IMG/VR virus record: IMGVR_UViG_3300016665_000370
Location: 1 to 64,000 of that record
From: a virus
Strand: one strand, 5' to 3'
DNA: 64,000 nucleotides
Shown here: piece by piece, positions 3,651 through 38,283 of the stretch
Position numbering within the stretch: the stretch's first letter is position 1
Layout: each line of letters opens with the position of its first letter
Translations under genes and position numbers: made by a program
The notes under the pieces: model-generated
Seen by the model: the letters and a program-made list of their open reading frames with translations, nothing else
Databases searched by the model: none
What the model was told of the DNA's origin: nothing

Positions 3651-4111
3651 GCGTACTAATTTATAGCTTATATAAAAAAGAAAATAAAATATATACAAAA
3701 TACAAGATAGACAAAAATACTCCAATTATAGAATTTTCAGGAACTATTTTCTATGGAGAAAAAAAGTACTCAGAAAATGAATTATTGGATTTACCAAAAG
3801 ATAAATATCTTGGACCTTCTGGAAATCTTGATGATTGTATAAGACATTCTTGCAATCCAAATACAAGAATAGAAATTGTAAATACAAGAGCTTTTTTGTA
3901 TTCAATAAAAACAATAAAAGCAAATGAAGAAATAACATTTGATTATTCTACAATTATAAAATCAGACAATACATTTGATTGCAATTGTAAAAATTATAAT
4001 TGTAGAAAAGTTATTTCCAATATTAAAAGTTTTAATAAAGAATTATTAGAAAAATATAAGAATCAAAAAATGATCCCAACATTTATACTGGAGCATTATG
4101 AGCGAAATTAA
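3647..4111 (+). CDS. SET-domain protein-lysine methyltransferase with post-SET Cys cluster
   Basis: RHSCNPN, EEITFDY, post-SET CNCKNYNCRK. Confidence 0.88.
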   Translation: MSVLIYSLYKKENKIYTKYKIDKNTPIIEFSGTIFYGEKKYSENELLDLPKDKYLGPSGNLDDCIRHSCNPNTRIEIVNTRAFLYSIKTIKANEEITFDYSTIIKSDNTFDCNCKNYNCRKVISNIKSFNKELLEKYKNQKMIPTFILEHYERN

Positions 4112-4727
4112 ATATTATGTATTAGATACAGAAACAACAGGATTATCACCAAAGATTCATGAAATTACAGAGTTTTCTATTATTAGATTTTCTGATAAAG
4201 TAAATCTTTATAAATCAGTAAAATGTGATAGACCAGAATCTGCATCTATAGATGCATTAAGAATTACAAATAAGACATTACATGATCTAAAAACAGGAAT
4301 GAGTAAATTAGAAGCATGTAATATTTTAGAAAAATTCTTAAATGAAGATGGAACTACATCCAAAGCAAGATGCATTGTTGGACATAATATTCAATTTGAT
4401 AGAAATTTTTTAATTGCAATGTTTGAAGAATGCGGAAAAGTATTTCCAGCAGATTTATGGCTCGATACTTTACAAATGACAAGAGACATTTTAAAAAATC
4501 AAGGATCAAATACAAAAGGAAGATTAAAGCTAGCAGATGCTTGTACGTCAATGGGCGTTAAATTAATTAATGGAGCCCATCAAGCTACAGTAGATAGCAG
4601 AAATACATTCTTACTATGGAGGAAAATTAAAGAATCAAATTTTGATTATTTAAAATATATAAAGAATATTCCTCATAAGCAAACCCAATTTAACGTTGAT
4701 GAATTGCTAGAAGAGTTAAATGACTAA
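4098..4727 (+). CDS. DEDDh 3'-5' exonuclease (DnaQ-like)
   Basis: LDTETTG, GHNIQFD, AHQATVD. Confidence 0.92.
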   Translation: MSEIKYYVLDTETTGLSPKIHEITEFSIIRFSDKVNLYKSVKCDRPESASIDALRITNKTLHDLKTGMSKLEACNILEKFLNEDGTTSKARCIVGHNIQFDRNFLIAMFEECGKVFPADLWLDTLQMTRDILKNQGSNTKGRLKLADACTSMGVKLINGAHQATVDSRNTFLLWRKIKESNFDYLKYIKNIPHKQTQFNVDELLEELND

Positions 4728-5265
4728 ATTGTTTTTTAAAACAAAAAAAGTAGAAAAAGATAAAGTATTTCTATGTAGAGTAAATGGCGATAATTTTATT
4801 GGAGAAATAATTTCTTATTGCGATTTAGTTTCCATAGAAAAAAACAAACATCTAAAAAGAACTTGGATAGATCTTTTTGGAAGTACAATTAAATTTAATT
4901 TCAAAGCTCCAGTTGAAATAAAGCATGGAGCAATAATAAAGCCAGAATATGGAAATCTATATTCTGGCTTAAGCTTTGATAACGTATTAAAATTAACAGA
5001 AAAGATGTGTATTGTAAAAGATAATGATTTTACACTTTACAACTGCATGTGTATAGACATGAAGATTAGATCATTCTTATTTATGAATGATAAAATTTAT
5101 AAAGTAAGTTCATTATTATTAGGATATGAAAATTTAAAAGAATTTATTAAGAATAAGAATATTTTACATTGGTATTCAAGAAAAACAAATTTATTTAATT
5201 CATCTGAGCAAGATATTTATTTTAGTATTTATCCATTTCCAAATGATTTATTAGGAAAATTTTAA
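4720..5265 (+). CDS. Hypothetical protein
   Basis: 181-aa ORF overlapping the previous stop. Confidence 0.6.
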   Translation: MTKLFFKTKKVEKDKVFLCRVNGDNFIGEIISYCDLVSIEKNKHLKRTWIDLFGSTIKFNFKAPVEIKHGAIIKPEYGNLYSGLSFDNVLKLTEKMCIVKDNDFTLYNCMCIDMKIRSFLFMNDKIYKVSSLLLGYENLKEFIKNKNILHWYSRKTNLFNSSEQDIYFSIYPFPNDLLGKF

Positions 5266-6441
5266 ATATTTGTTTATTATATTCAGCAAATTATTTTGTG
5301 GTTTTGTTTCAACTTGCTGAACCTGTTGAGGTTGTGGTTGAGATTCTTGTTGGGAGCCTTTAATAAATACAGAGACTCCTTTATGCCAACCAATTGGACC
5401 TCCTTTAAATCCAGGAGGATGATAATGGGGTTCAAGGGCAAACATATAATCTTTGCCATTAATTGTTTCAAAAATCTTATCGCCCATATTTTTGGACAAT
5501 AGTTCTTTTGCCCTCTGCGTGACTTCGCTTGGCACTCTGCCCTTGAGCCTGGAGTAGCCATCGATAGATTGTGTAGGAATTGCTGGAGAATTCTGTGGTG
5601 ATTTCTCGCCATCGGTCTTGTCCGGCTCTGGAGAGTTATCAAGCTTATAAGATGTTGAAATTAATTTTTCATAAGATACCAAAGAATGTAATTGAGGATT
5701 TTTTAAGACTTCCTCAATATTCATATTTTGAATTGATCCTTTAATATTTACAGAGCAAGATTTATCAACCAATCTTACGCTATGGCTATAATCATAATAA
5801 GCAGCTTCATGGAATGTTGATTCTGGTTGAATTGGTTTATCATTCATATGCCAGCCATAGATATTTACTCTATCTGGTTTATTGGATAATTTATTTCCAA
5901 TAACAACATCTTTTTTAATTCCAGAGACCAAATCTCCAGGTTTATGATTTAATCTAGCTAATTGCCTTTCAATCATTCTATTATGTTCTTCTAAAGAATC
6001 TGCATGTTGCATTTTTAATTGTATAAAATCTTTGCCTGTATATTTTTTGCCGGACACGGTAGCTCCACCAGACATTGGAGCTGGTTGAGCTTTTGTTTTG
6101 GCTTGGCTATGAATTTGATCAACCATTTTTTTGGTTGGTAAAATACAATTAAATAAATTTGCAATTCTTTGAGATGTTGGACCATCGCAAGATATTCTAA
6201 CATAATCTTGATCAGATCCAATAGACATATAATCAGGAGAAACAAAATAAGTAATAGAAATATCATTTTCTTGAACTTTAATAGGAACAAACTTTCTTAA
6301 AAAAGAAGGAAAGTTTCCTTGTTTAATTTGTTCAATAATAAGATCATTTCTTTTAGGAGAACCTGATTTAAAATTAGATATTAATTGTATAAATTGAGAT
6401 CCTGAAATTGCATCAGATTTTCTACTTGGGAAATTAGGCAT
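5251..6441 (-). CDS. Uncharacterised two-domain protein, paralogue of 7602..8300
   Basis: Shares LPTKKMVDQI, KKDVV, IYGWH, PIQ and H...YYDY.H..RL with 7602..8300; extra C-terminal EPHYHPPG..GP.GWHKGVSVF domain. Confidence 0.8.
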   Translation of the reverse strand: MPNFPSRKSDAISGSQFIQLISNFKSGSPKRNDLIIEQIKQGNFPSFLRKFVPIKVQENDISITYFVSPDYMSIGSDQDYVRISCDGPTSQRIANLFNCILPTKKMVDQIHSQAKTKAQPAPMSGGATVSGKKYTGKDFIQLKMQHADSLEEHNRMIERQLARLNHKPGDLVSGIKKDVVIGNKLSNKPDRVNIYGWHMNDKPIQPESTFHEAAYYDYSHSVRLVDKSCSVNIKGSIQNMNIEEVLKNPQLHSLVSYEKLISTSYKLDNSPEPDKTDGEKSPQNSPAIPTQSIDGYSRLKGRVPSEVTQRAKELLSKNMGDKIFETINGKDYMFALEPHYHPPGFKGGPIGWHKGVSVFIKGSQQESQPQPQQVQQVETKPQNNLLNIINKYLKFS

Positions 6442-6498
6442 ACAAGTATGCTATTATTTTGAACGATTAAATGTGTTTTTTTAGCAAATCATCTGCAT

Positions 6499-7587
6499 TT
6501 AGCTGCCCGCCCAAGGATTATTTGTGGTTGGTTTATTTGGATCTTCTTCTTTTTCTGTTATTTGATATGTTTTTGATCCCCAAGGCATACTTTCAGTTGG
6601 TTTATCTTCAACTTTTTTCTTTTTATCTTGTGGGTCACCCATCGACATTGAAAGTTGAACTAAATCATTTAATTTGCTATATGATCCAAATGTTATTGGC
6701 ATTTTTGATCGTATTAAGTCTTTGTTTAATATTGAATATAATGGAGTATAAAATCTATAAAATTGGGCTAATTGACTACGAAGATTTACTTTTTTTTCTT
6801 TAATATAATTTTCTACTTCACCCAATTTAGAATTAATTCTTGCTGCTTGAACAGCATTTTCTATATTTGATAAAGAAGTTGATACTTGTGCATCATTTAA
6901 TTTATGATAATTTTCTAATAAATAAGTTAAACTATTAAAAGCTTTATTATAAGCAATATTTAAATCACTTAATGGTTTTATTATATTTTGTCTTGCAGGT
7001 TTACTGTACAATGCATTTGGATCAGAGAATGTAATTTCTTCATCATCATCCTTACCTCTCCTTGATAAATTTTCCCAACGCAAAGAGTATCTATTATCTT
7101 CTTCATTTTTTTCTTTAATATATTGATTTACTACTGCAAATGAATGGGCATATATTGCATATTTATCATTACCTAAAACAGATCGGAAAAATCCACCAGC
7201 TTCATTAAATAAAAAGTCTGTATTTTTAACTGATTTATATGTTGGATTGTCTGGATCTTCAGAAAGTGCTATTGAATTTTTATTTTGTAATTCACCTAAT
7301 GTTTGTAAATGTGTTATTGCTGCTTGAAAAAAACCTACAAGACGTTCTGGTATGTTAATATTAGTTTGATACCATCCAAATTTTGGATATTTATGTGGTA
7401 CTTTATCATTCTCTTTTGAGAATTTTGCATCAATTTCATTAATTCTAAGAAGTATTTGATCTTTTACTTGTTCTAAGAGTTTATAATTTCTTTCAAAACT
7501 ATCTCGTGAAATAGTTTCTACTTTTCTTGGCTCATATCCAGGATGAAGTTCTTGAGCTATTTTATACAAAGTTTTTTTACTAAACAT
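6499..7587 (-). CDS. Hypothetical protein with N-terminal KIAQ motif (possible internal virion protein)
   Basis: 362 aa, starts MFSKKTLYKIAQ. Confidence 0.75.
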   Translation of the reverse strand: MFSKKTLYKIAQELHPGYEPRKVETISRDSFERNYKLLEQVKDQILLRINEIDAKFSKENDKVPHKYPKFGWYQTNINIPERLVGFFQAAITHLQTLGELQNKNSIALSEDPDNPTYKSVKNTDFLFNEAGGFFRSVLGNDKYAIYAHSFAVVNQYIKEKNEEDNRYSLRWENLSRRGKDDDEEITFSDPNALYSKPARQNIIKPLSDLNIAYNKAFNSLTYLLENYHKLNDAQVSTSLSNIENAVQAARINSKLGEVENYIKEKKVNLRSQLAQFYRFYTPLYSILNKDLIRSKMPITFGSYSKLNDLVQLSMSMGDPQDKKKKVEDKPTESMPWGSKTYQITEKEEDPNKPTTNNPWAGS

Positions 7588-11414: not shown

Positions 11415-13301
11415 ATGTCAAAAATTGAAAATAAAGAATATTTAACATTTGGTGATATTTTACTAAAACCTGCTTATTCAGAAATAACAAGCAGATCTCA
11501 AGTTAGTCTAGAAGTTAAAATAAAAGACTTTACTTTTGCAAGTCCATTAATTCCAGCTAATATGAAATCTATTATGTGTTTTGAATTAGCATGTAAAATA
11601 TATGAAAACAAATCTCTTGGAATACATCACAGATTCTCTACAATAGAAGAGCAGATTCAATTCTTTGAATCATTAAAGAACAAATATGGAAATGATGTAT
11701 TTAATTACATTGGTTGTTCTGTTGGTGTAAAAGAACAAGATAAAGAAAATGCTAAACTATTTCTAAATCTTGGTGTAAAAATATTTTGCATAGATATTGC
11801 ACATGGACATTCAAAAGAATGCGGAGAAATGTGTTCTTATTTAAAGAATCTAAATAAAGACATGTTACTTATTGCTGGCAATGTTGCTACAATAGAAGGA
11901 TCAGAATATCTATGGAATAATGGAGCAGATGTAGTTAAAGTTGGTATTGGAGGTGGATGCTTAAAAGGTGATGCCAGAATACTAATGTCAAATGGAACTT
12001 ATAAAAACATTACAGAAATAAAAGAAGGAGATTCTATTATAGATGGTAAAGGCAATCCAACAAAAGTTAATAAATTAATTTATTCTGGAAGAAAAACAGT
12101 AAGCAGCATTAAGCATAATGGATTTCATAAGCCATTATATGCAACTGAAGATCATAAATTTTATGTAAATAATAAAGATTTTGAATGGAAAGAATTATCT
12201 GATTTAAACAAAAATGTTTTAAGTCCTAAAAATATAAACTTTAATCTTAAAGAAGATTTTAATATTCAATTAAATAAATCTAATATAAAATCAAGTTATG
12301 ATATTGGTTATATTTTTGGAGTATCTTTAGGAGATAATTTAATTAAAAATAATAATTCTATTACCTGGGTATTTGATAAAGAAGATGTTGCTTTGAAATT
12401 ATCCAAATCAATTAATAAAGAATTTAACTGCGATGTAAAAATAAAAAATAAAATAGTTAATATTTCTGAAAAACAAATTGTAAAATTACTAAACTTTAAT
12501 AAATTACCAGAAGAATTTCTATGTAGCAATAAAGAATATTTACAAGGTTTATTTGATGGATTGGTTGATAATCAAATCTCTGATGATTTAAATGAATTGT
12601 TTATGTTTTTAAACTTTAAATTAAATGGATATTTTACTTCAGATAATAACAAAGATAATTTTCAACATTATATGATAACTAATAAAATAAATCATATTGA
12701 AGAAGTTGATACTTATGATTTAGAAGTAGAATCAGAAGATCATAGTTTTATAGCAAATAACATTATTGTACATAATTCAATTTGTACTACTAGATTAAAG
12801 GCTGGAGCAGGAGTGCCACAAGTATCTGCTTTGGAAGAAATATATGAATGGAATTCTTTAACAAGTAGTAGGTATTTAGCATTAAGTGATGGAATCAAAG
12901 ATGTAAGAAATAATAGATTTATAATATCTGATGGAGGAATTAGGGATGTAGGTGATTTTGTTAAAGCATTAGCTTTTTCAAATATGGTAATGGCAGGAAA
13001 TATGTTTTCTGGATGCGAAGAAACTCCAGAAGAAGTATTAGAAATAGATGGTCAAAAATATAAAAAGTATGCAGGATCATCTACTCATAAAACTACAAAT
13101 ATAGAAGGTGTAGTTTCTTTAGTTCATGTAAAAGGTAAGTTTAAAGATATTCTTGAAACTTACTCTCAAGGAATAAGATCTGGATTATCTTATGCAGGAG
13201 CAGATAATTTAGAAACATTTAGAAGTAAAGCAAAATTTGTTAGAATAACAAATGAAGCTAAGCAAGAATCTGGAACTCACGATGTAAAGGTAATAGGATG
13301 A
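11415..13301 (+). CDS. guaB: IMP dehydrogenase/GMP reductase family protein (no CBS domain), contains an intein
   Basis: LTFGDILLKP, PANM, IDIAHGHS, AGNVAT, KVGIGGG|SICTTR, SDGGI, GIRSGLSYAGA. Start at 11415 (GGAG RBS) preferred over 11382. IMPDH versus GMP reductase is not resolved. Confidence 0.88.
   Translation: MSKIENKEYLTFGDILLKPAYSEITSRSQVSLEVKIKDFTFASPLIPANMKSIMCFELACKIYENKSLGIHHRFSTIEEQIQFFESLKNKYGNDVFNYIGCSVGVKEQDKENAKLFLNLGVKIFCIDIAHGHSKECGEMCSYLKNLNKDMLLIAGNVATIEGSEYLWNNGADVVKVGIGGGCLKGDARILMSNGTYKNITEIKEGDSIIDGKGNPTKVNKLIYSGRKTVSSIKHNGFHKPLYATEDHKFYVNNKDFEWKELSDLNKNVLSPKNINFNLKEDFNIQLNKSNIKSSYDIGYIFGVSLGDNLIKNNNSITWVFDKEDVALKLSKSINKEFNCDVKIKNKIVNISEKQIVKLLNFNKLPEEFLCSNKEYLQGLFDGLVDNQISDDLNELFMFLNFKLNGYFTSDNNKDNFQHYMITNKINHIEEVDTYDLEVESEDHSFIANNIIVHNSICTTRLKAGAGVPQVSALEEIYEWNSLTSSRYLALSDGIKDVRNNRFIISDGGIRDVGDFVKALAFSNMVMAGNMFSGCEETPEEVLEIDGQKYKKYAGSSTHKTTNIEGVVSLVHVKGKFKDILETYSQGIRSGLSYAGADNLETFRSKAKFVRITNEAKQESGTHDVKVIG
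11958..12776 (+). mobile_element. Intein (273 aa) in IMPDH/GMPR with a decayed LAGLIDADG endonuclease
   Basis: Starts CLKGDARILM, block B TEDH, ends ANNIIVHN followed by +1 Ser; endonuclease remnants GYIFGVSLGD and YLQGLFDGLVD. Confidence 0.93.
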
Positions 13302-25611: not shown

Positions 25612-25953
25612 TTAAAGTAATTTGGTTTCATATTCTACAGTTACTTCTATGTACACTTGATTTTTTCTGTCAAGTTCTGAAAGATCTTTTTTTATCTTAT
25701 AAAAAGGTTTTTTCATTCTTGCTATTTCTTGGTTTTCAAAAAAAACAATATAATCATCTTCATCTGCAATTTTTAAATTATTTTTTGATAGCAAGTTTTT
25801 TATTTTTATTTTATTTTCAACTGTATTTTCTTCAAACAAAGAATCAGTTTTAAACTCTAATACTTCCAGTATTGTTTTTAAGAATTTATTTTTTTCTTCT
25901 TGTTCAAACTCTTCTTTGTTTGAAGAAATATTTAACAAATATACTTGTTTCAT
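25612..25953 (-). CDS. Hypothetical protein
   Basis: 113 aa, TAATG overlap with the nrdJ C-terminal ORF. Confidence 0.7.
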   Translation of the reverse strand: MKQVYLLNISSNKEEFEQEEKNKFLKTILEVLEFKTDSLFEENTVENKIKIKNLLSKNNLKIADEDDYIVFFENQEIARMKKPFYKIKKDLSELDRKNQVYIEVTVEYETKLL

Positions 25954-26948
25954 TAATTACATTTTGAATAACCGCAAGATTTGCAAGTCAAACATCCTTC
26001 TTGATAAATCAAAGAATCTTCAGATCCACATGATGGACATTTCTTTTCAGAAGATGATTTTTCTCCATCTTTAATATAAGACTTTAAGACTCTTGCTATT
26101 ACTTTAGAGAAAGATGTCATTTCTGCATACTTATCTTTTGTTAGTTGTTCTGCAATATAATGAACTGGAACTCCATGTCTTAGATTTAATGAAATCATTC
26201 TAGTAAATGCTTCATATGTTTTATTTTCAAATACATTTGCAATATCTTTAATAGTTAATTGATCTTCATCAGATCCAGAAACTAAATTATATATTCCATT
26301 TGTTTTTACTATTTTTCCTACTTTGTTTTTTGATGGAATGTCAACAAATTTTGCTAAACCTCCAAATACTTCATATGGTTTGCCATTTAATAGACCAACA
26401 AAAATTGTCCAAGATTCTCCATCTATTTTTACTTTTTTAATATCGCAATCTAATGATTGAGGTCTCTTTGGCGCCATAACTGGATTAATATCTGTTGGTC
26501 TTCCATCTTTTTCTTTCTTTGGTTCATTTGAAATAAGAACTCCGCTTCTAGAACCATCTCTGTAAATAGTAAATCCTTTACATCCAGCTTCCCACGCTTT
26601 CATATATACTTCAGATACTAGATCTTCTGTTACATTGTTTGGTAAATTACAATTATGAACTACAATTCCATTTGCAGTATATGAATGACCTTCTGGTACT
26701 GTAAAATCTCCAACTAATTCATTATTTAATATTTCTTTTTCTTTTAATTTTGAAAAAGTATCTTTTGAAGAATATGGTCCAATATCAATCTTGCACCATG
26801 ATGCAAGCGCATAAATATCTTTATTATTTACTTTTGTTCCAGACTCTTTTAAATAAACTAAGAATTTGCTTGCAAAAGATTTATCTGTTCGTAATTCAAT
26901 TGGTAATCTAATTTCTTGTTCTGCATACATTATATATTTTTCAAACAT
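25953..26948 (-). CDS. nrdJ: Class II ribonucleotide reductase, C-terminal part (split-intein C half + RNR C-terminus + TSCPD-like/Zn-ribbon domain)
   Basis: ...SYTANGIVVHN|CNLP, AWEAGCKGFTIYRDGSR, KRP..L, PYEVF, ISLNLRHG, CPSC...YQEGCLTCKSCGYSKC. Confidence 0.92.
   Translation of the reverse strand: MFEKYIMYAEQEIRLPIELRTDKSFASKFLVYLKESGTKVNNKDIYALASWCKIDIGPYSSKDTFSKLKEKEILNNELVGDFTVPEGHSYTANGIVVHNCNLPNNVTEDLVSEVYMKAWEAGCKGFTIYRDGSRSGVLISNEPKKEKDGRPTDINPVMAPKRPQSLDCDIKKVKIDGESWTIFVGLLNGKPYEVFGGLAKFVDIPSKNKVGKIVKTNGIYNLVSGSDEDQLTIKDIANVFENKTYEAFTRMISLNLRHGVPVHYIAEQLTKDKYAEMTSFSKVIARVLKSYIKDGEKSSSEKKCPSCGSEDSLIYQEGCLTCKSCGYSKCN
26652..26948 (-). mobile_element. Split intein C-fragment (up to 99 aa)
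   Basis: Block F/G VGDFTVPEGHSYTANGIVVHN followed by +1 Cys. Confidence 0.88.
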
Positions 26949-28126
26949 TTTACATCCTTTATTAAAAAATTTTCTATATCATCTGAAAAGATTTTATCTT
27001 CTGATAAAATCAAGAAGTTATTATAAATTTCTCGTGCAGCATTAAATTTGCAAATATTGATTTCTTTATTAATTAATTTTTTTGGTTTTATTTCTAAAAC
27101 ATTTTCTATTCCATTTAGATCTAAATAACTTACGTCTGGATAATAATATCTAAACCTTTTATTATAAAAAAACTTAATTCTTTTAGATTCAAAAACATCT
27201 AAAATAATTTTTTTACCAAGCAATTCATCCAATTTTTGGAATACTATTAGTTCCCATGAAGATCTATAAAATAATTTGCCATTTTTATTTTTAAAAAAAT
27301 ACCATCCTTTTTTAGATTTTTTGTATCCATTTTCTAAGCAATATAAACTATTTGTATTAAATCTATCAGAGATATACTCTGAATACATTAAATGTATTTT
27401 TTCATCTTGAATATTATCATTTTCTTTAATTAGATTTAAATTTTTTAAATGAGTTTTTTTCCATTTTATTTTATCATGATTAAAAAATTTTATTTCTTTT
27501 TTGTATTTTTTAATTAAATTATTTTTTTCATTTTCTTTAAAAGTATTCCATTTTTCATTTTCTATATTATAGTATAGACATACTGTTTTGATAGTAGCAT
27601 TTTTATAAGATATTTTTACATTTTCAATTGTACCATGTTTTTTTAATCTTCCATTTTTTATTTTTTCAACATGATTTGTTTTTTTATAAAAAAATGAATT
27701 AAATTTAGATTTTAATTCTTCATATGTTAAAGTATTTAGATCATCATTATTTATAATATTGTTATTTAACAATTCTTTTTTTAAGAAATTTATTCTTGCT
27801 TTTTTGCCAGATTTTGAATAAAAATTATGAACGTCTCCATATTTTTGTTTTATTGTTTTATTTTTTTTATTTATACTTTTTTTTGTGGATTCTGATTGAA
27901 AGCAAGAAAACAAACGTTCCATTTCTAAAATATTATTTTCATCAAATTGCACATTTTTATTTTTTAAAAATGTTATTAAAAATTTTTTTCTAACAATTCC
28001 AGATTTACGTAAACAATCATAAGAACAAGTGTCATTTAAATGAGATGATCTTTTACTATTAAAAATAAACTCTTTATTACATATATTGCATAATTTTTTC
28101 ATAGTATGATGCTCATTTAATGACAC
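26930..28126 (-). CDS. Free-standing putative homing endonuclease (N-terminal Zn finger, C-terminal TnsA-like PD-(D/E)XK domain)
   Basis: CNIC...CSYDC; FYRSSWE, YYYPD, LEIKPK; very basic; lies between the two nrdJ halves. Confidence 0.75.
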   Translation of the reverse strand: MSLNEHHTMKKLCNICNKEFIFNSKRSSHLNDTCSYDCLRKSGIVRKKFLITFLKNKNVQFDENNILEMERLFSCFQSESTKKSINKKNKTIKQKYGDVHNFYSKSGKKARINFLKKELLNNNIINNDDLNTLTYEELKSKFNSFFYKKTNHVEKIKNGRLKKHGTIENVKISYKNATIKTVCLYYNIENEKWNTFKENEKNNLIKKYKKEIKFFNHDKIKWKKTHLKNLNLIKENDNIQDEKIHLMYSEYISDRFNTNSLYCLENGYKKSKKGWYFFKNKNGKLFYRSSWELIVFQKLDELLGKKIILDVFESKRIKFFYNKRFRYYYPDVSYLDLNGIENVLEIKPKKLINKEINICKFNAAREIYNNFLILSEDKIFSDDIENFLIKDVKCLKNI

Positions 28127-28134
28127 TTTTTATT

Positions 28135-31100
28135 TTATGATATTTTTAGCTTATCACCGGTATTAATATCTTCTATGTACTTCCATTTATATGTATTTTC
28201 TTTTTCATCAAAAACATAAAATTGTTCTTTAGTAGTTACTTTTAATGATAAACCATTTTCTAATGTAACTTTGACAATTTTCTTCTCTCCCATGTTATGA
28301 AAATGACTTGGACTTACATAATTACCATCATGGTTCTTTAAAAGAATATTTTTATTATTTTCCAATGAATCCATAGAATTCATTTTATCAATATTAAAAA
28401 TTTCATCTAAATACATTAGCCCATTGTTTGTTTCAATTAATGAATCTTTTGTAACACAAGTTTTGCTTATGCTATGATCTATATATTTCTGAGCTATTGC
28501 TTGAATTTCTACTGACTTTAACCAATTAACATCATTTGATGTACCACCATAATAAGGAGATTTTGTTAAATCTTTTTCTCCTGTAATGTCCATCCATTCT
28601 TTTACCTTATGATGATAAACATCAAACTCTTGCCATCTATCTCCTAATGCATCTACGAAATCTACTCTTTCATTTTCCATAGATGGATTAATCTTCTTTC
28701 TTCTCTTATAAGATAGCAAATATGCTGGCTCTATTCCTGATGTTGTTTGAGTTAATGTAGAAACTGATCCTGTTGGCGCTGTTGTTAATAATGCTATGTT
28801 TCTTCTACCATAAGCATAATAAAGATCTTTTAGTTCTTTATCTTCTGATAGTAACAAAGAAATATATGGATTGTTTTCTTCAAGTTCTCTTTCAAATAAT
28901 GGGAATGTTCCTCTTTCTTTAGCTAATATACAAGTAGACTTGTATGCATTTAGTGCTAGTGTTTTGTAGATTTCTCCAGTCATTTTAACAGATTCATCTG
29001 AACCATATACAATTCCTAACATCGCTAAACAATCACCCAATGCTGTAATTCCATTTCCTGTTCTTCTTCCATTTACGCAAGAATCCAAGAACTTTGTCCA
29101 CATATTAATCTCAATTTGTTTTATTTCTTGTGGCTCTGGATCTTCTTCTAGTTTCCTAAGTATCTTATTTGTTTTCTCTATTTCTAGATCAATCAAATCA
29201 TCCATTAACCTTTGTGCTTTTTGTACTACCTCTCCAAAGAGTTTAAAATCAAAATAAGCATCTTTTGTAAATGGATTTTTTACGAATGTACTTAAGTTTG
29301 TTACTAACAATCTACAACTATCTAGACCGAGAGGAATTTCACCGCATGGATTAGTTGATGTTGTTTTAAAATTTGGATTCTTTACAGCATAACAATCTGC
29401 TGGAGAGTTATTTACTATACTATCCCAGAATAATATTCCTGGCTCGGCTGATAACCAAGCACACTTAATTATTTGATCCCAAATTTCTTTTGCATTTACT
29501 TCTTTTGTTACTAATGCTTCTGATATTGGCTTGTCTGTTGGATAATGTAAGGTAAACTTTGAATTTGATTTTACAGCCCTCATAAAATCATCTGTAATTC
29601 TAACAGAAATATTCGCTCCTGTAACTTTTCTTAAATCTTTTTTGATATTAATAAAAGTTTCAATTTCTGGATGTCTAATGTCAATAGATAACATTAGTGC
29701 TCCACGTCTACCACTATTATGAACATAAAGACCATTTCCAAAGAATAAATGCTCAGATTCCAAAACTAAATCATATACATCTTCCTCTCCGCTTACTTCT
29801 TCTATTGAAGTAACTTTATCTAAAAACAAAAATGTATCTTTATCAGAACCTAATTCTTCTTTTAATCTACTAAGAGTAGAATAACTTAGCTTATTTTCAT
29901 TACCTGCAATATAAAAATGTCTGCTTGCTATAGATCCAAAATCTTTTACTGTATAAATTGATTTTGAAAAATCTCTTCGCTTATTAACTAAAGCTAAATT
30001 CTTTATCTTAATACTTTCATTTAAATATTCTTTAAATATACTTTGATTTTTCTTACCATTAATTGATAAGGTATATAGATCACTCCATTTACCTTTTCTT
30101 TGCTGCCTATGAATTGTTGAAATAACTCCAAAGGCAGAAAGTACATTCTGCATTGTTTGTAGGAATTTTTCATTTATAGATGCAACTCTATAATATTTCT
30201 TTTTTACAGAGACATTTCCGTCTGCATCAAAGAATCCAGAAATAAATGAGAATAAAACTTCTTTCTTTGCAGAAAGTAAAGATTCTGGAAATACAATATC
30301 TTTTGATTTTTGCTTTAAAAGATTATTATGTTCTAGAAACTTAATAACTTCTTTTGAATGAATAACTACATCTGTAGAGTTATCGTTTTCTTTAGTTTTA
30401 ATGGTTGGACTTGTATTAAATACAACTTGAATGTTATTAATTAGCTTATCTTTAATTTCTGACCATTCATTAGATGTACATACAGAAATAGAATCTTTAT
30501 AAACACATCCATCTCCATACATTTGACCAAGAACATATGCTAATTCAATAGTTAGAGTAGTTGGTTGAGATATATCTTTCTTTCCAGAATAATCAATGGT
30601 TTTTAGATTAATTTCTGAACCTTCCCATCCATTGCCTATAATCTGAGAAACTTTAGATCCTACATGAATATCTTTTATTTGTTTTTCAGAATCAACGCAA
30701 TGTAAAACATGATCTTTGCTAGCAAATAGTTCTTTACCATGTTTTGTTTTTACTTTTACTAAAGATTTTTTATTCTTTAGTACTTTAAGTACATTTACCC
30801 ATTTCTTAGCTGTCCAAACCTTGTCATTTGGATTTACTTGAGAAATTGGTTTTAGTCCATTTAATGTAAGAACTAATGTATCTCCACGTAGACATTGAGC
30901 TACTTCTCTTGTAGTATTAGAGAATCTTTCCATAAAGATTCCAATACCATCGGTTGTTTTAGCTGCGTTATTTGTTACCATACCTTTTGGTCGAATGGTA
31001 GAAATATCAACACCTACTCCACATCTACGTTTCATTAGCTGAGCAAGCTCTTGATCAGTAGTTAGAATTCCACCATAAGAATCATAGGGAGGATTTACTA

Positions 31101-31410
31101 CAAAACAATTTCCTAGTGATTGAACATAAATATTGTTTCCAATACCAAACATTGGACTACCTTGTGGAACAATATATTTAAACTTATCTAGTAGATTGAA
31201 GATTTCATCTTCGCTCATTCCATTTTCGTATTTAGCTTCTATTCTAGCAAATTCTTTTGCCATTCTTTTATGCATATCTCTTGGAGTTAATTCTAGATAT
31301 TCTCCATTTTTATTTTGAAGCGCATATTTATCCACGAATACTTTTGCTGCTAATTCATCATTGTTAAAATATTTTAAAGACTCGCTATATACTTGATCGT
31401 ACTTATACAT
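28135..31410 (-). CDS. nrdJ: Class II (B12-dependent) ribonucleotide reductase, N-terminal part; contains a cis intein and a split-intein N half
   Basis: FVDKYAL, SLGNCFV, GRRGALM, HPEIETFI, GANISV, AEPGILF, TNPCGEI, SCRL, RRTGNG, TTAPTGSVS, TSGIEP, DHSISKT. Confidence 0.94.
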   Translation of the reverse strand: MYKYDQVYSESLKYFNNDELAAKVFVDKYALQNKNGEYLELTPRDMHKRMAKEFARIEAKYENGMSEDEIFNLLDKFKYIVPQGSPMFGIGNNIYVQSLGNCFVVNPPYDSYGGILTTDQELAQLMKRRCGVGVDISTIRPKGMVTNNAAKTTDGIGIFMERFSNTTREVAQCLRGDTLVLTLNGLKPISQVNPNDKVWTAKKWVNVLKVLKNKKSLVKVKTKHGKELFASKDHVLHCVDSEKQIKDIHVGSKVSQIIGNGWEGSEINLKTIDYSGKKDISQPTTLTIELAYVLGQMYGDGCVYKDSISVCTSNEWSEIKDKLINNIQVVFNTSPTIKTKENDNSTDVVIHSKEVIKFLEHNNLLKQKSKDIVFPESLLSAKKEVLFSFISGFFDADGNVSVKKKYYRVASINEKFLQTMQNVLSAFGVISTIHRQQRKGKWSDLYTLSINGKKNQSIFKEYLNESIKIKNLALVNKRRDFSKSIYTVKDFGSIASRHFYIAGNENKLSYSTLSRLKEELGSDKDTFLFLDKVTSIEEVSGEEDVYDLVLESEHLFFGNGLYVHNSGRRGALMLSIDIRHPEIETFINIKKDLRKVTGANISVRITDDFMRAVKSNSKFTLHYPTDKPISEALVTKEVNAKEIWDQIIKCAWLSAEPGILFWDSIVNNSPADCYAVKNPNFKTTSTNPCGEIPLGLDSCRLLVTNLSTFVKNPFTKDAYFDFKLFGEVVQKAQRLMDDLIDLEIEKTNKILRKLEEDPEPQEIKQIEINMWTKFLDSCVNGRRTGNGITALGDCLAMLGIVYGSDESVKMTGEIYKTLALNAYKSTCILAKERGTFPLFERELEENNPYISLLLSEDKELKDLYYAYGRRNIALLTTAPTGSVSTLTQTTSGIEPAYLLSYKRRKKINPSMENERVDFVDALGDRWQEFDVYHHKVKEWMDITGEKDLTKSPYYGGTSNDVNWLKSVEIQAIAQKYIDHSISKTCVTKDSLIETNNGLMYLDEIFNIDKMNSMDSLENNKNILLKNHDGNYVSPSHFHNMGEKKIVKVTLENGLSLKVTTKEQFYVFDEKENTYKWKYIEDINTGDKLKIS
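28138..28458 (-). mobile_element. Split intein N-fragment (107 aa)
   Basis: ISKT|CVTKDSLIETNNG...IVKVTLENGLSLKVTTKEQF...WKYIEDINTGDKLKIS then stop. Confidence 0.88.
29716..30894 (-). mobile_element. Intein (393 aa) with LAGLIDADG homing endonuclease in nrdJ
   Basis: EVAQ|CLRGDT...SKDH...LGQMYGDG...FISGFFDADG...GLYVHN|SGRRGA. Confidence 0.95.
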
Positions 31411-35613: not shown

Positions 35614-38283
35614 TTAATTTCCTAATATTTTAAATCCTGGTTCTTGTATATAAGTTTCATATCTTATTTTTGAATGATTATCCAAAAATCTAACATTATC
35701 CATAAAGTCTACAATTGCTGCTTTTGTTTTATCTTTGTAAGCTCTAATAACTCGACCTATTCTTTGCAATGTTCTTACTTTAGATTTTCCTCCTCCACAT
35801 AAAACTAATGCAGATAATTTTGGCAAATCCATTCCAATGTCAAATATTGTACTAGCAATTATACAATCTATTTCTCCATCATTTAATTTTTGCTTTATTA
35901 TATTTCTTTTTTCCAAAGAATCATTTCCATACAAAAGCTCGCAATTAATTCCTTCATTTATAAATTCATTGTATAACTTTTTACCATGCTCTATGGTTTT
36001 AAATAAAACTAATGGTTTATATTTCTTTTCTATAAGATATTTTGTATTCCTAACTATTAATGCGTTTCTTATGTCATTATTTACAATATATTCTTTATAT
36101 ACTTCTTGAAATGTTCTTGCATGAATTGTTTGATGCGGAACATTTACAAATTTAATAACTGGTTGAGCTAATACTTTCTTTTCTATTAATTCAGATGCAG
36201 ATACATTGCATATTATTTTACCAAGCATAGCTTCTGTTAATAAATCACTTCCATCATCTCTAAATGGCGTTCCTGATAATCCATAAATTCTCTCTGGATC
36301 TATATATTTATAGATTTGTTGTAACGTATCGCAAGTACATGCATGACACTCATCTATAATATGAACCTTAGCTTCTTTTAAACATTGTAGGATTTTAAAT
36401 TTATCTTTTATAGATGGTGGTAATTCTTTTATAGATTCATCATCCATTACAAGAGATTCTTTCTTTACTTCTAATGCTGAACCTAATGTCCACACAGATG
36501 CTATTGTTATTCTTTTTGGATTACAAATTCCATTTCCTATCCAACCTATTTCTTCTTTAAATAACTTTGAATATAGATCATGAAATTGTTGCAATAAATC
36601 TAATCCTATTACATAAATAATTGTAGGTTTATTAAATTCTTTTACAATTTGAGCAGATACAAATGTATTATGATTTATAAAACCATTTGAAACAAAGCTA
36701 TGTGTTTCTGGTATACAGAAATCGTAATTATCAGAAATTACTTTTTCTATTTTAGAAACTTTTAAGAAAATTTTATCTTTTATAGTAGATTTAATTTCAT
36801 TTACTTTTTCACCCTCTTCGCAATTATCTAAATATTTTTCTAAATTTGCTTTAGATGGGTTTCTATAACTACCCCAAGATTTAATTGTTTTTGTGTTTTC
36901 AAATCCAGGTTTTAGTTTTGTACTTTTAATATTTTTTCTTTGGAATGGAACACAATTAACATTTAAATTAAAATTTTTATTTGTAAAATTTACTTTTTTA
37001 ATTTTATGACCATTTGGATCTAAACCAATTTCATTCATAAACTTTGGAATAAATTCATTATATATTGTTAATATAAAACAATCATTTCTGCTTGTTTTTT
37101 TCATTCTTTTTGAGGCTACAATTCCAAAGTTTAATAAAATTGTTTGAATTTGATCTATTAATTTTTCATTAGATAGTCCTAGACATATAGATCTTGACTC
37201 TACCCATCCATCTGTTTCATAAATTCCTCTTATAAACATAGCAAGAGGTTCTTTCTTTAACATTCTTATATTCTTTGGAATTTCTTTATTTATAGATTTG
37301 CAGTATTTAAATCCATAATCATATAATTCTTTTCTATAGGATGTAGAATATATATTTAAAGATTTTGCCTTTGATTTTGTATTATATAATTTGTATTTTA
37401 TATTTAATTTATTTAAATAATTAACTCCAAAATCTAAAATATGTTTATCCATATTTGTTAGAGTAACAACTCCTTTAGTAGTTAGACCTCCATCTCCTAT
37501 TAATAAACCATACCAATAAGCAGTATCTAAATCTAGATCATTAGATCCAAACATTTGTGTATTATATGATATTGCAACATAATCTTTTTCTGAAATTTCA
37601 GAAAGTTTTTTCCAAGCTAATTTACCATCAGTATTAATTATTTTAATTCTATGATTTGGAGTTCCAGTTATTGAATAACCATATTTTGTAGTAATCTTAA
37701 TAGACTCAGATACTCCATCATAATAAAAATGTGATGAAGTATCTTTATTATTATTTGTTAAAGGAGTTGCAAGCTTAAGATTAAGCTCTGTACTTTCTTT
37801 TTCTTTTACATTTAAATTATAAATTTCTTTTAATTCTTCAAAAGAAAGAATTCCTTTTTCTGTAATATTAAGAGAATCTTTGGAAATACACTTACCGCTT
37901 CCTGTAGCCGCACGTACAATTCCTATTGTATTTTCTTTGCAAGCTTCAACTATTCTTTGTTGATAATCTCTTGCAGAAAATCCAATATCATTTAAAATGA
38001 GTTCTGGTTCTATTTTTGGTTTTTTTCTTTTATCTTCTATTTCATAAGCAATAGAATTTTCATCTAAGTATTTTTTTACTTTATCTAATAATCCAATACC
38101 AAATTCATTTTTTTTATTTAAAAGGCGTACAATTCCATCCCAACCATTTTTGTATGCTTGTGTATATTCTACGCCTTGTTTTTTATAAGATAATAGTTTT
38201 GATATTTTTAATATTATGGATTTATCTTCTGTTATTAATTTAGCAACTTTGCTATTTTTTATTAATATTTTTAAATCACTCAT
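35614..38283 (-). CDS. Superfamily 2 DExH helicase (UvsW/XPB-like), contains an intein
   Basis: RDYQ, ATGSGK|T, IIDECH, GLSGTP, FDIGMDLP, QRIGRVIR. Confidence 0.93.
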   Translation of the reverse strand: MSDLKILIKNSKVAKLITEDKSIILKISKLLSYKKQGVEYTQAYKNGWDGIVRLLNKKNEFGIGLLDKVKKYLDENSIAYEIEDKRKKPKIEPELILNDIGFSARDYQQRIVEACKENTIGIVRAATGSGKCISKDSLNITEKGILSFEELKEIYNLNVKEKESTELNLKLATPLTNNNKDTSSHFYYDGVSESIKITTKYGYSITGTPNHRIKIINTDGKLAWKKLSEISEKDYVAISYNTQMFGSNDLDLDTAYWYGLLIGDGGLTTKGVVTLTNMDKHILDFGVNYLNKLNIKYKLYNTKSKAKSLNIYSTSYRKELYDYGFKYCKSINKEIPKNIRMLKKEPLAMFIRGIYETDGWVESRSICLGLSNEKLIDQIQTILLNFGIVASKRMKKTSRNDCFILTIYNEFIPKFMNEIGLDPNGHKIKKVNFTNKNFNLNVNCVPFQRKNIKSTKLKPGFENTKTIKSWGSYRNPSKANLEKYLDNCEEGEKVNEIKSTIKDKIFLKVSKIEKVISDNYDFCIPETHSFVSNGFINHNTFVSAQIVKEFNKPTIIYVIGLDLLQQFHDLYSKLFKEEIGWIGNGICNPKRITIASVWTLGSALEVKKESLVMDDESIKELPPSIKDKFKILQCLKEAKVHIIDECHACTCDTLQQIYKYIDPERIYGLSGTPFRDDGSDLLTEAMLGKIICNVSASELIEKKVLAQPVIKFVNVPHQTIHARTFQEVYKEYIVNNDIRNALIVRNTKYLIEKKYKPLVLFKTIEHGKKLYNEFINEGINCELLYGNDSLEKRNIIKQKLNDGEIDCIIASTIFDIGMDLPKLSALVLCGGGKSKVRTLQRIGRVIRAYKDKTKAAIVDFMDNVRFLDNHSKIRYETYIQEPGFKILGN
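36667..37890 (-). mobile_element. Intein (408 aa) with LAGLIDADG endonuclease in the helicase Walker A motif
   Basis: GSGK|CISKDS...TPNH...YGLLIGDG...FIRGIYETDG...GFINHN|T. Confidence 0.95.

Follow-up and report, generated by a model that had tools for sequence, protein, structure and literature searches.

Layout of the fractured nrdJ locus

The window, the whole 64,000-nucleotide stretch of DNA analysed here (positions 1 to 64,000 of IMG/VR record IMGVR_UViG_3300016665_000370), comes from an uncultured freshwater phage and carries nrdJ, the gene for the large subunit of a class II ribonucleotide reductase (RNR), in two pieces with a nuclease gene in between. Three open reading frames (ORFs), each in its own frame, lie on the minus strand at 25953-31410. 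ORF1 follows the reductase as far as ...HSISKT, continues with 107 residues of the N-terminal half of an intein (IntN; CVTKDS...GDKLKIS) and ends at a TAA stop codon at 28135-28137, while ORF3 opens with 99 residues of the C-terminal half (IntC; M...GIVVHN) and then encodes CNLPNN... and the remainder of the reductase. The intervening ORF2 may start at a GTG (398 amino acids (aa)) or at an ATG at 28102 (390 aa; used by the public gene call P0001), it overlaps ORF3 by 19 nt, and an AGGA box is positioned 6 nt upstream of the ORF3 ATG. The features of the locus are:

28135..31410, minus strand: N-terminal nrdJ gene, ORF1, 1091 aa (N-extein, cis intein, N-extein, IntN, stop); Pfam PF00317, PF02867, PF14528 and PF14890
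30895..31410, minus strand: N-extein part 1, residues 1-172, ending ...EVAQ; PF02867 at 30895-31110, aligns to intein-free relatives such as P0025
29716..30894, minus strand: complete cis-splicing LAGLIDADG intein, residues 173-565, C...VHN/S (a slash marks a junction here and below); LAGLIDADG_3 PF14528 (E 4e-21) and Intein_splicing PF14890
28459..29715, minus strand: N-extein part 2, residues 566-984, with NPCGEI and TAPTGS, ending HSISKT; PF02867 positions 74-495, Thermotoga maritima NrdJ alignment to ISKT598
28138..28458, minus strand: IntN, 107 aa, with Cys1 and block B TTKEQF, stop at 28135-28137; PF14890 positions 12-96
26930..28126, minus strand: free-standing candidate homing endonuclease gene, ORF2, 398/390 aa (zinc finger CxxC...CxxxC, helical region, C-terminal nuclease); ORF list, relatives and structure model
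26975..27298, minus strand: PD-(D/E)xK nuclease domain, residues ~277-384 (E292, P330-D331, E345-x-K347); invariant columns, PF08722 in relatives, fold match to TnsA 1t0f
25953..26948, minus strand: C-terminal nrdJ gene, ORF3, 331 aa (IntC, then C-extein); ORF list, Pfam, AGGA box
26757..26948, minus strand: IntC N-terminal extension, residues 1-64, a conserved small helical domain; alignment and structure model
26652..26756, minus strand: IntC core, residues 65-99, blocks F and G, ending His-Asn; hhalign to the C-terminus of the cis intein, probability 91%
25953..26651, minus strand: C-extein, 232 aa, starting CNLP (RNR barrel end, TSCPD domain, zinc ribbon), and stop; PF02867 positions 492-523 and PF12637

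A reading made from the sequence alone (hereafter the sequence-only reading) had described an nrdJ that stops 107 aa into an intein, a break at ISKT/C, a 398-aa ORF in the middle and a third ORF completing the enzyme; the ORF list bears this out to the base, and the extents then given for IntN (28138-28458) and IntC (26652-26948) are exact. ORF1 also contains the complete LAGLIDADG intein, so that a full-length RNR would require one cis and one trans splicing event, as had been claimed.

The host gene is assigned to the class II RNR large subunits by PF02867 (E 2e-73), with the NPCGEI thiyl-Cys loop encoded in ORF1. Judged by sequence, the reductase is nearest to the B12-dependent enzymes (NrdJ), its closest solved relative being T. 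maritima NrdJ (E 5e-37); the C-extein alone had no match among the PDB sequences. No other gene for an RNR large subunit is present in the 94-kb record.

Recurrence and conservation across loci

Both junctions of the insert were found unchanged in contigs from runs of two other studies: the junction of the IntN stop and the nuclease start is identical in X4 record 26 (28046-28531) and X2 record 12 (27767-30840), and that of the nuclease stop and the IntC start is identical in X3 record 16 (26840-26990). Run X1, possibly the run from which the record derives, contributed short low-identity pieces only. Among related viral and metagenome loci, retrieved with a profile of ORF2 relatives, at least 15 distinct, diverged cases have the three genes arranged in this way at this motif, and every full-length ORF2 relative with readable flanks has the NrdJ N-terminal part and IntN upstream and IntC and the NrdJ C-terminal part downstream, a recurrence far beyond chance. 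Identity to the window across these loci is 34-62% for the exteins (34-57% for the C-extein), 27-42% for the intein halves and 31-41% for the nuclease. Seven closer N-fragment proteins, with an IntN 46-62% identical to that of the window, all end in IntN, and across the 15 or more loci and six proteins the IntN is always C-terminal (identity, 30-62%).

The genes of these loci have their own start codons and are joined by varying spacers and overlaps, and the ratios of nonsynonymous to synonymous substitution (dN/dS; Nei-Gojobori, closer pairs) were 0.05-0.08 for IntN, 0.12-0.13 for ORF2 and 0.17 for IntC. Each of the three genes can be translated separately, and all are conserved and show purifying selection. 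A contiguous form of the intein was sought in three ways. IntN compared with proteins of 600-1910 aa gave seven hits, all split, and IntC compared with proteins >580 aa gave no contiguous allele, both by word-based searches that offer weak evidence of absence; an IntC profile run over the viral contigs recovered only relatives that are split and inteins that are unrelated and lie at other sites.

The insertion site

In the alignment with T. maritima NrdJ, the break falls after T598 (between T598 and I599). Viral contigs were scanned with the start of the C-extein and the best 80 loci were examined; the insert is absent from all 80 of these NrdJ loci, most of which have HSISKT-CNLP across the site and the rest SIS[NSV]T-[TCVI]NLP, and 37 intein-free phage NrdJ genes have SKT-C-NLP exactly. 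The expectation that splicing would restore SISKT-CNLP thus corresponds to a native sequence, and the uninterrupted motif of the empty alleles indicates that the +1 Cys is native to the reductase, that splicing would be scarless and that empty alleles are common. Among the relatives the insertion occurs at two points one residue apart, either as in the window (HSISKT/C...HN/CNLP) or as HSIS[SNK]/C...HN/T-x-NLP, where the Thr of the motif itself serves as the +1 nucleophile.

The split intein

The alignment of both fragments to intein models that the sequence-only reading called for gives PF14890 matches in each half (IntN, positions 12-96; IntC, positions 114-155). All relatives keep Cys1, the block F Asp (D81), the terminal His-Asn (H98, N99) and either Cys or Thr as the +1 nucleophile. 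The His of block B is a catalytic residue, near-universal among inteins and held in textbooks to be near-essential. The window lacks the Thr-x-x-His that characterizes block B of canonical class 1 inteins, having T-T-K-E-Q-F in its place, and most relatives have T-x-N-E-[KR]-F, an ungapped replacement of His by Glu. A T-x-[DN]-H block B occurs only in L002, L004, L005, L062, L069, L071 and P0025, among which the well-supported clade L002/L004/L005 (100/99), together with P0025, has T-x-[DN]-H-K-F.

The second distinguishing property is the length of IntC, 95-115 aa in all relatives, so that the long C-terminal fragment remarked on from the window sequence is both real and conserved. When the IntC was compared by hhalign with the complete intein of the same gene, residues 65-99 alone aligned, equivalent to a usual 35-aa IntC. 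The preceding residues 1-64 are also conserved (R14, P16 and R20 invariant; N.DIY.LA.W) and are modelled as four helices forming a small domain (pLDDT ~90). Fold searches with this extension returned nothing above Z 3.6 or Foldseek E 0.9. An origin of the extension as a LAGLIDADG fossil was considered and is unsupported, with hhalign aligning the 35-aa core alone and no fold match being found.

One split allele has no nuclease gene (L114:4455-5276): its IntN ORF ends at 4805 and its IntC ORF begins at 4977, after ~170 non-coding bases, with the helical extension intact. Since the extension is kept where the nuclease gene is missing, the 64-aa domain is most likely part of the intein, with a putative role in fragment association or folding, and not part of the nuclease. 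No consistent pattern across loci was seen in the net charges of IntN or of the extension and core of IntC, which thus gave no evidence of charge complementarity.

The middle nuclease gene

The ORF2 family comprises ~43 clusters of full-length members at E <1e-30, while the C-terminal 110 residues alone are common to ~2,500 proteins. In the predicted structure, a zinc finger (CxxC...CxxxC) and a long helical region accompany an alpha/beta nuclease domain, in which the invariant E292, P330-D331 and E345-x-K347 constitute a canonical PD-(D/E)xK site. Six of 17 relatives match PF08722, the TnsA N-terminal family (best E 1.4e-7), and none of the 17 matches the Vsr Pfam model. The top match among solved folds is TnsA 1t0f (Z 8.6, rmsd 3.1, 103 aligned residues), followed by I-Bth0305I 3r3p (Z 7.8) and Vsr 1cw0 (Z 7.2), and phage proteins under the names TnsA-N-domain, NUMOD3 and homing endonuclease are among the matches in predicted viral structures. 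The label of TnsA-like PD-(D/E)xK nuclease, first applied from the window sequence, is supported at the level of the family, by the Pfam matches of the relatives, the fold and the invariant residues.

The more distant relatives of the nuclease domain (L007-L059, L075-L112) are solitary genes flanked by other phage genes, outside fractured genes. Some are nuclease-only genes of ~160 aa occupying one conserved position (in L016, L024, L026, L028, L030, L042, L058 and others), with a ~150-aa gene and a gene beginning ...MTKKLEEEFNLP as neighbours in many short phage contigs. These ~160-aa TnsA-like genes may be free-standing homing endonucleases.

Comparison with known systems

Fractured genes with split inteins were described in 2009 from GOS metagenomes (NrdJ-1 and -2, NrdA-1 to -7, gp41-1 and IMPDH-1; Dassa et al. 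2009, PMC2677866), and the locus in the window has the same layout, including the short spacer before the nuclease gene and the overlap of frames at the IntC start. Each set includes an allele without a nuclease (gp41-7 there, L114 here) and an IntN of ~105 aa. In the published NrdA and NrdJ genes the break is at or beside the thiyl-radical Cys (PMC2677866), whereas the HSISKT/CNLP break is near the end of the barrel; their nucleases are GIY-YIG or Vsr-like, whereas the one here is a canonical PD-(D/E)xK TnsA-like enzyme; and their IntC is 33-54 aa, compared to 95-115 aa with a conserved helical domain. Further differences from those genes are the block B Glu in most members and a +1 residue that is either Cys or Thr, at two neighbouring insertion points. 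The sequence-only reading had suspected that both the insertion site and the type of nuclease departed from known examples, and the comparison sustains it on each. In layout this is a known fractured gene, set apart by its site, nuclease family, long IntC, block B Glu and paired Cys+1 and Thr+1 forms.

TnsA of Tn7 (PDB 1f1z, 1t0f; PF08722), whose family is the only Pfam nuclease family matched by the relatives, shares the restriction-endonuclease-like fold and the catalytic Glu/Asp/x-Lys. In contrast to TnsA, the loci here have no TnsA C-terminal domain, TnsB or TnsC partners or transposon ends; nrdJ halves flank the gene in every locus, and the protein carries a zinc finger and helical region besides this domain, in a context of the homing type. 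The I-Bth0305I and Vsr-like EDxHD homing endonucleases (PMC3239194) are likewise modular, binding DNA through an N-terminal part and cutting it with a C-terminal domain of restriction-enzyme fold, but their active sites use Asp, His and Asp without Lys, while the site here is E...PD...ExK, with the Lys present and no catalytic His. The related loci L002 and L006 have nucleases of this Vsr-like type at their other fractures, and so do fractured genes already in the literature. In Aeromonas phage Aeh1 an RNR large subunit is also split by a free-standing homing endonuclease gene (NrdA-a/MobE/NrdA-b; PMC3045599); its two polypeptides reportedly assemble non-covalently and lack an intein, unlike the present locus, where both ends of the break carry intein halves with intact nucleophiles. 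The searchable literature, which is of incomplete coverage and has no intein registry, yielded no description of a TnsA-like homing endonuclease with split inteins or of this cassette.

A probable mobile trans-splicing cassette and its alternatives

The locus is probably best explained as a mobile fractured-gene cassette composed of IntN, the nuclease gene and IntC, placed between the Thr and Cys of HSISKT-CNLP. The intein halves would bring the two reductase polypeptides together, and Cys1, the terminal His-Asn and Cys+1 would carry out protein trans-splicing to give a seamless NrdJ, with the upstream LAGLIDADG intein removed in cis. The product of the middle gene would act as a modular homing endonuclease, its zinc finger and helices recognizing DNA and its TnsA-like PD-(D/E)xK domain cleaving at or near the motif in the intein-free nrdJ of co-infecting phages, after which repair would copy in the whole cassette. 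As to mobility, the cassettes of L063 and L064 are 74-76% identical and their C-exteins 61%, while L060 and L064 have C-exteins 72% identical, cassettes 41-44% identical and insertion points one residue apart. Such mismatches between cassette and C-extein similarity, along with the presence/absence polymorphism, are indirect signs of mobility. The tree of the nuclease domain plus IntC is not resolved at depth, and the frequency of shifts in insertion point is not readable from it.

Several observations weigh against this interpretation. With Glu in block B of the window and most relatives, the splicing chemistry may be slow, conditional or absent; trans-splicing is likely, the missing His being the main reservation. 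Splicing and DNA cleavage are both predictions from the genes. The evidence of mobility comes from few locus pairs, and the record is 22% complete, such that a second RNR gene may lie elsewhere in the genome. The nuclease of the window does not itself match PF08722 at E up to 1, and TnsA is within about 1.4 Z of I-Bth0305I and Vsr, so the fold alone does not discriminate between them. On the whole, the cassette is real and conserved, and it is probably mobile.

It is improbable, though the loss of the block B His gives the idea some force, that the intein halves only dock, holding the two polypeptides together non-covalently without ever ligating them, as for the Aeh1 NrdA. On this account the replacement of T-x-x-H by T-x-x-E in the window and most relatives disabled splicing and the extra 64-aa IntC domain could act as a clasp; split RNRs that are not spliced are known (PMC3045599). 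However, a clasp would not need Cys1, the block F Asp, His-Asn and the +1 Cys or Thr, which are invariant at ~30% identity, the canonical TxDH is retained in one clade of the same family, and ~200 foreign residues kept inside a conserved barrel motif would be awkward. That the gene is instead decaying, a once-contiguous intein having been frameshifted along with its embedded endonuclease to leave nrdJ a pseudogene, would account for three ORFs in three frames and for a nuclease gene located where the endonuclease domain of an intein would be, but is very unlikely given a three-ORF layout with its own starts and varying spacers and overlaps in 15 or more diverged loci, strong purifying selection on every part and a ribosome-binding site for ORF3; moreover, no contiguous relative was found by the searches above, and L114 is split yet has no nuclease gene.

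Endonuclease-encoding introns are frequent in phage RNR genes (PMC3653736), and an intron of group I or II with the nuclease gene inside it might rejoin the halves in the RNA, as might programmed frameshifting or bypassing during translation. The sequence-only reading had itself raised an RNA intron as grounds for rejection, and an Rfam search returned no intron match even at E up to 1; recognizable intein blocks at both ORF ends would be redundant under an intron, and spacer lengths and frames differ between loci, all of which make rejoining of this kind highly improbable. The stop at 28135 had likewise been flagged as a potential assembly artefact; a chimeric or mis-assembled contig is a concern appropriate to a viral contig derived from a metagenome, but with both junctions identical in contigs of other samples and studies and the layout recurring in many independent assemblies, the chance that assembly created the stop and frame changes is negligible. 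Together, the independent contigs, the 15 or more loci, the low dN/dS and the lack of an Rfam intron match make artefact, pseudogene and RNA-level rejoining unlikely.

An extension of the trans-splicing cassette, which is speculative and rather unlikely as a whole, is that the T-x-x-Glu block B and the 64-aa IntC domain mark out a subclass of natural split inteins that differs in mechanism. The domain would drive the capture of fragments or activate the N-terminal junction in place of the His, splicing and reductase activity would possibly be conditional, and the Cys+1 and Thr+1 versions would be suited to orthogonal ligation.

Other inteins and fractures in the window and its relatives

The cis LAGLIDADG intein of ORF1 is absent from P0025, L005 and L063. 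Its first 11 residues (CLRGDTLVLTL) resemble the extein that follows it (SGRRGALMLSI; window 28459-28500 and 29680-29715), and BLAST aligns both to the same stretch of intein-free relatives. Elsewhere in the window, intein-splicing-domain matches occur at 36667-37836 on the minus strand and 11997-12776 on the plus strand, in ORFs of 889 aa and 682 aa, indicating that the phage genome is intein-rich.

Fractures of the same sort occur twice in the nrdJ of L002, and in L006 (L006:476-7925) nrdJ is in four pieces, with three split inteins, the halves of each separated by a free-standing nuclease gene: one Vsr/DUF559-like (1350-2399), one with no Pfam match (3749-5131) and one TnsA-like (5938-6936). 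The position of the cis intein of the window (EVAQ/C...HN/SGRRGA) is apparently occupied by a split intein and Vsr-like nuclease gene in L002:1754-3720 and L006:476-2530, the junctions being approximate. If so, contiguous and fractured forms of an intein coexist at one site in related genes.

Significance

Protein-ligation tools are built from natural split inteins, and each orthogonal family is useful for them; the cassette family described here is widespread, under selection and present in Cys+1 and Thr+1 forms. The missing block B His provides a natural test of how the first step of splicing is activated without it. With this locus, a canonical PD-(D/E)xK TnsA-like enzyme joins the few nuclease types that serve as free-standing homing endonucleases in fractured genes, and the full, nuclease-less and empty alleles represent stages in the life cycle of the element.

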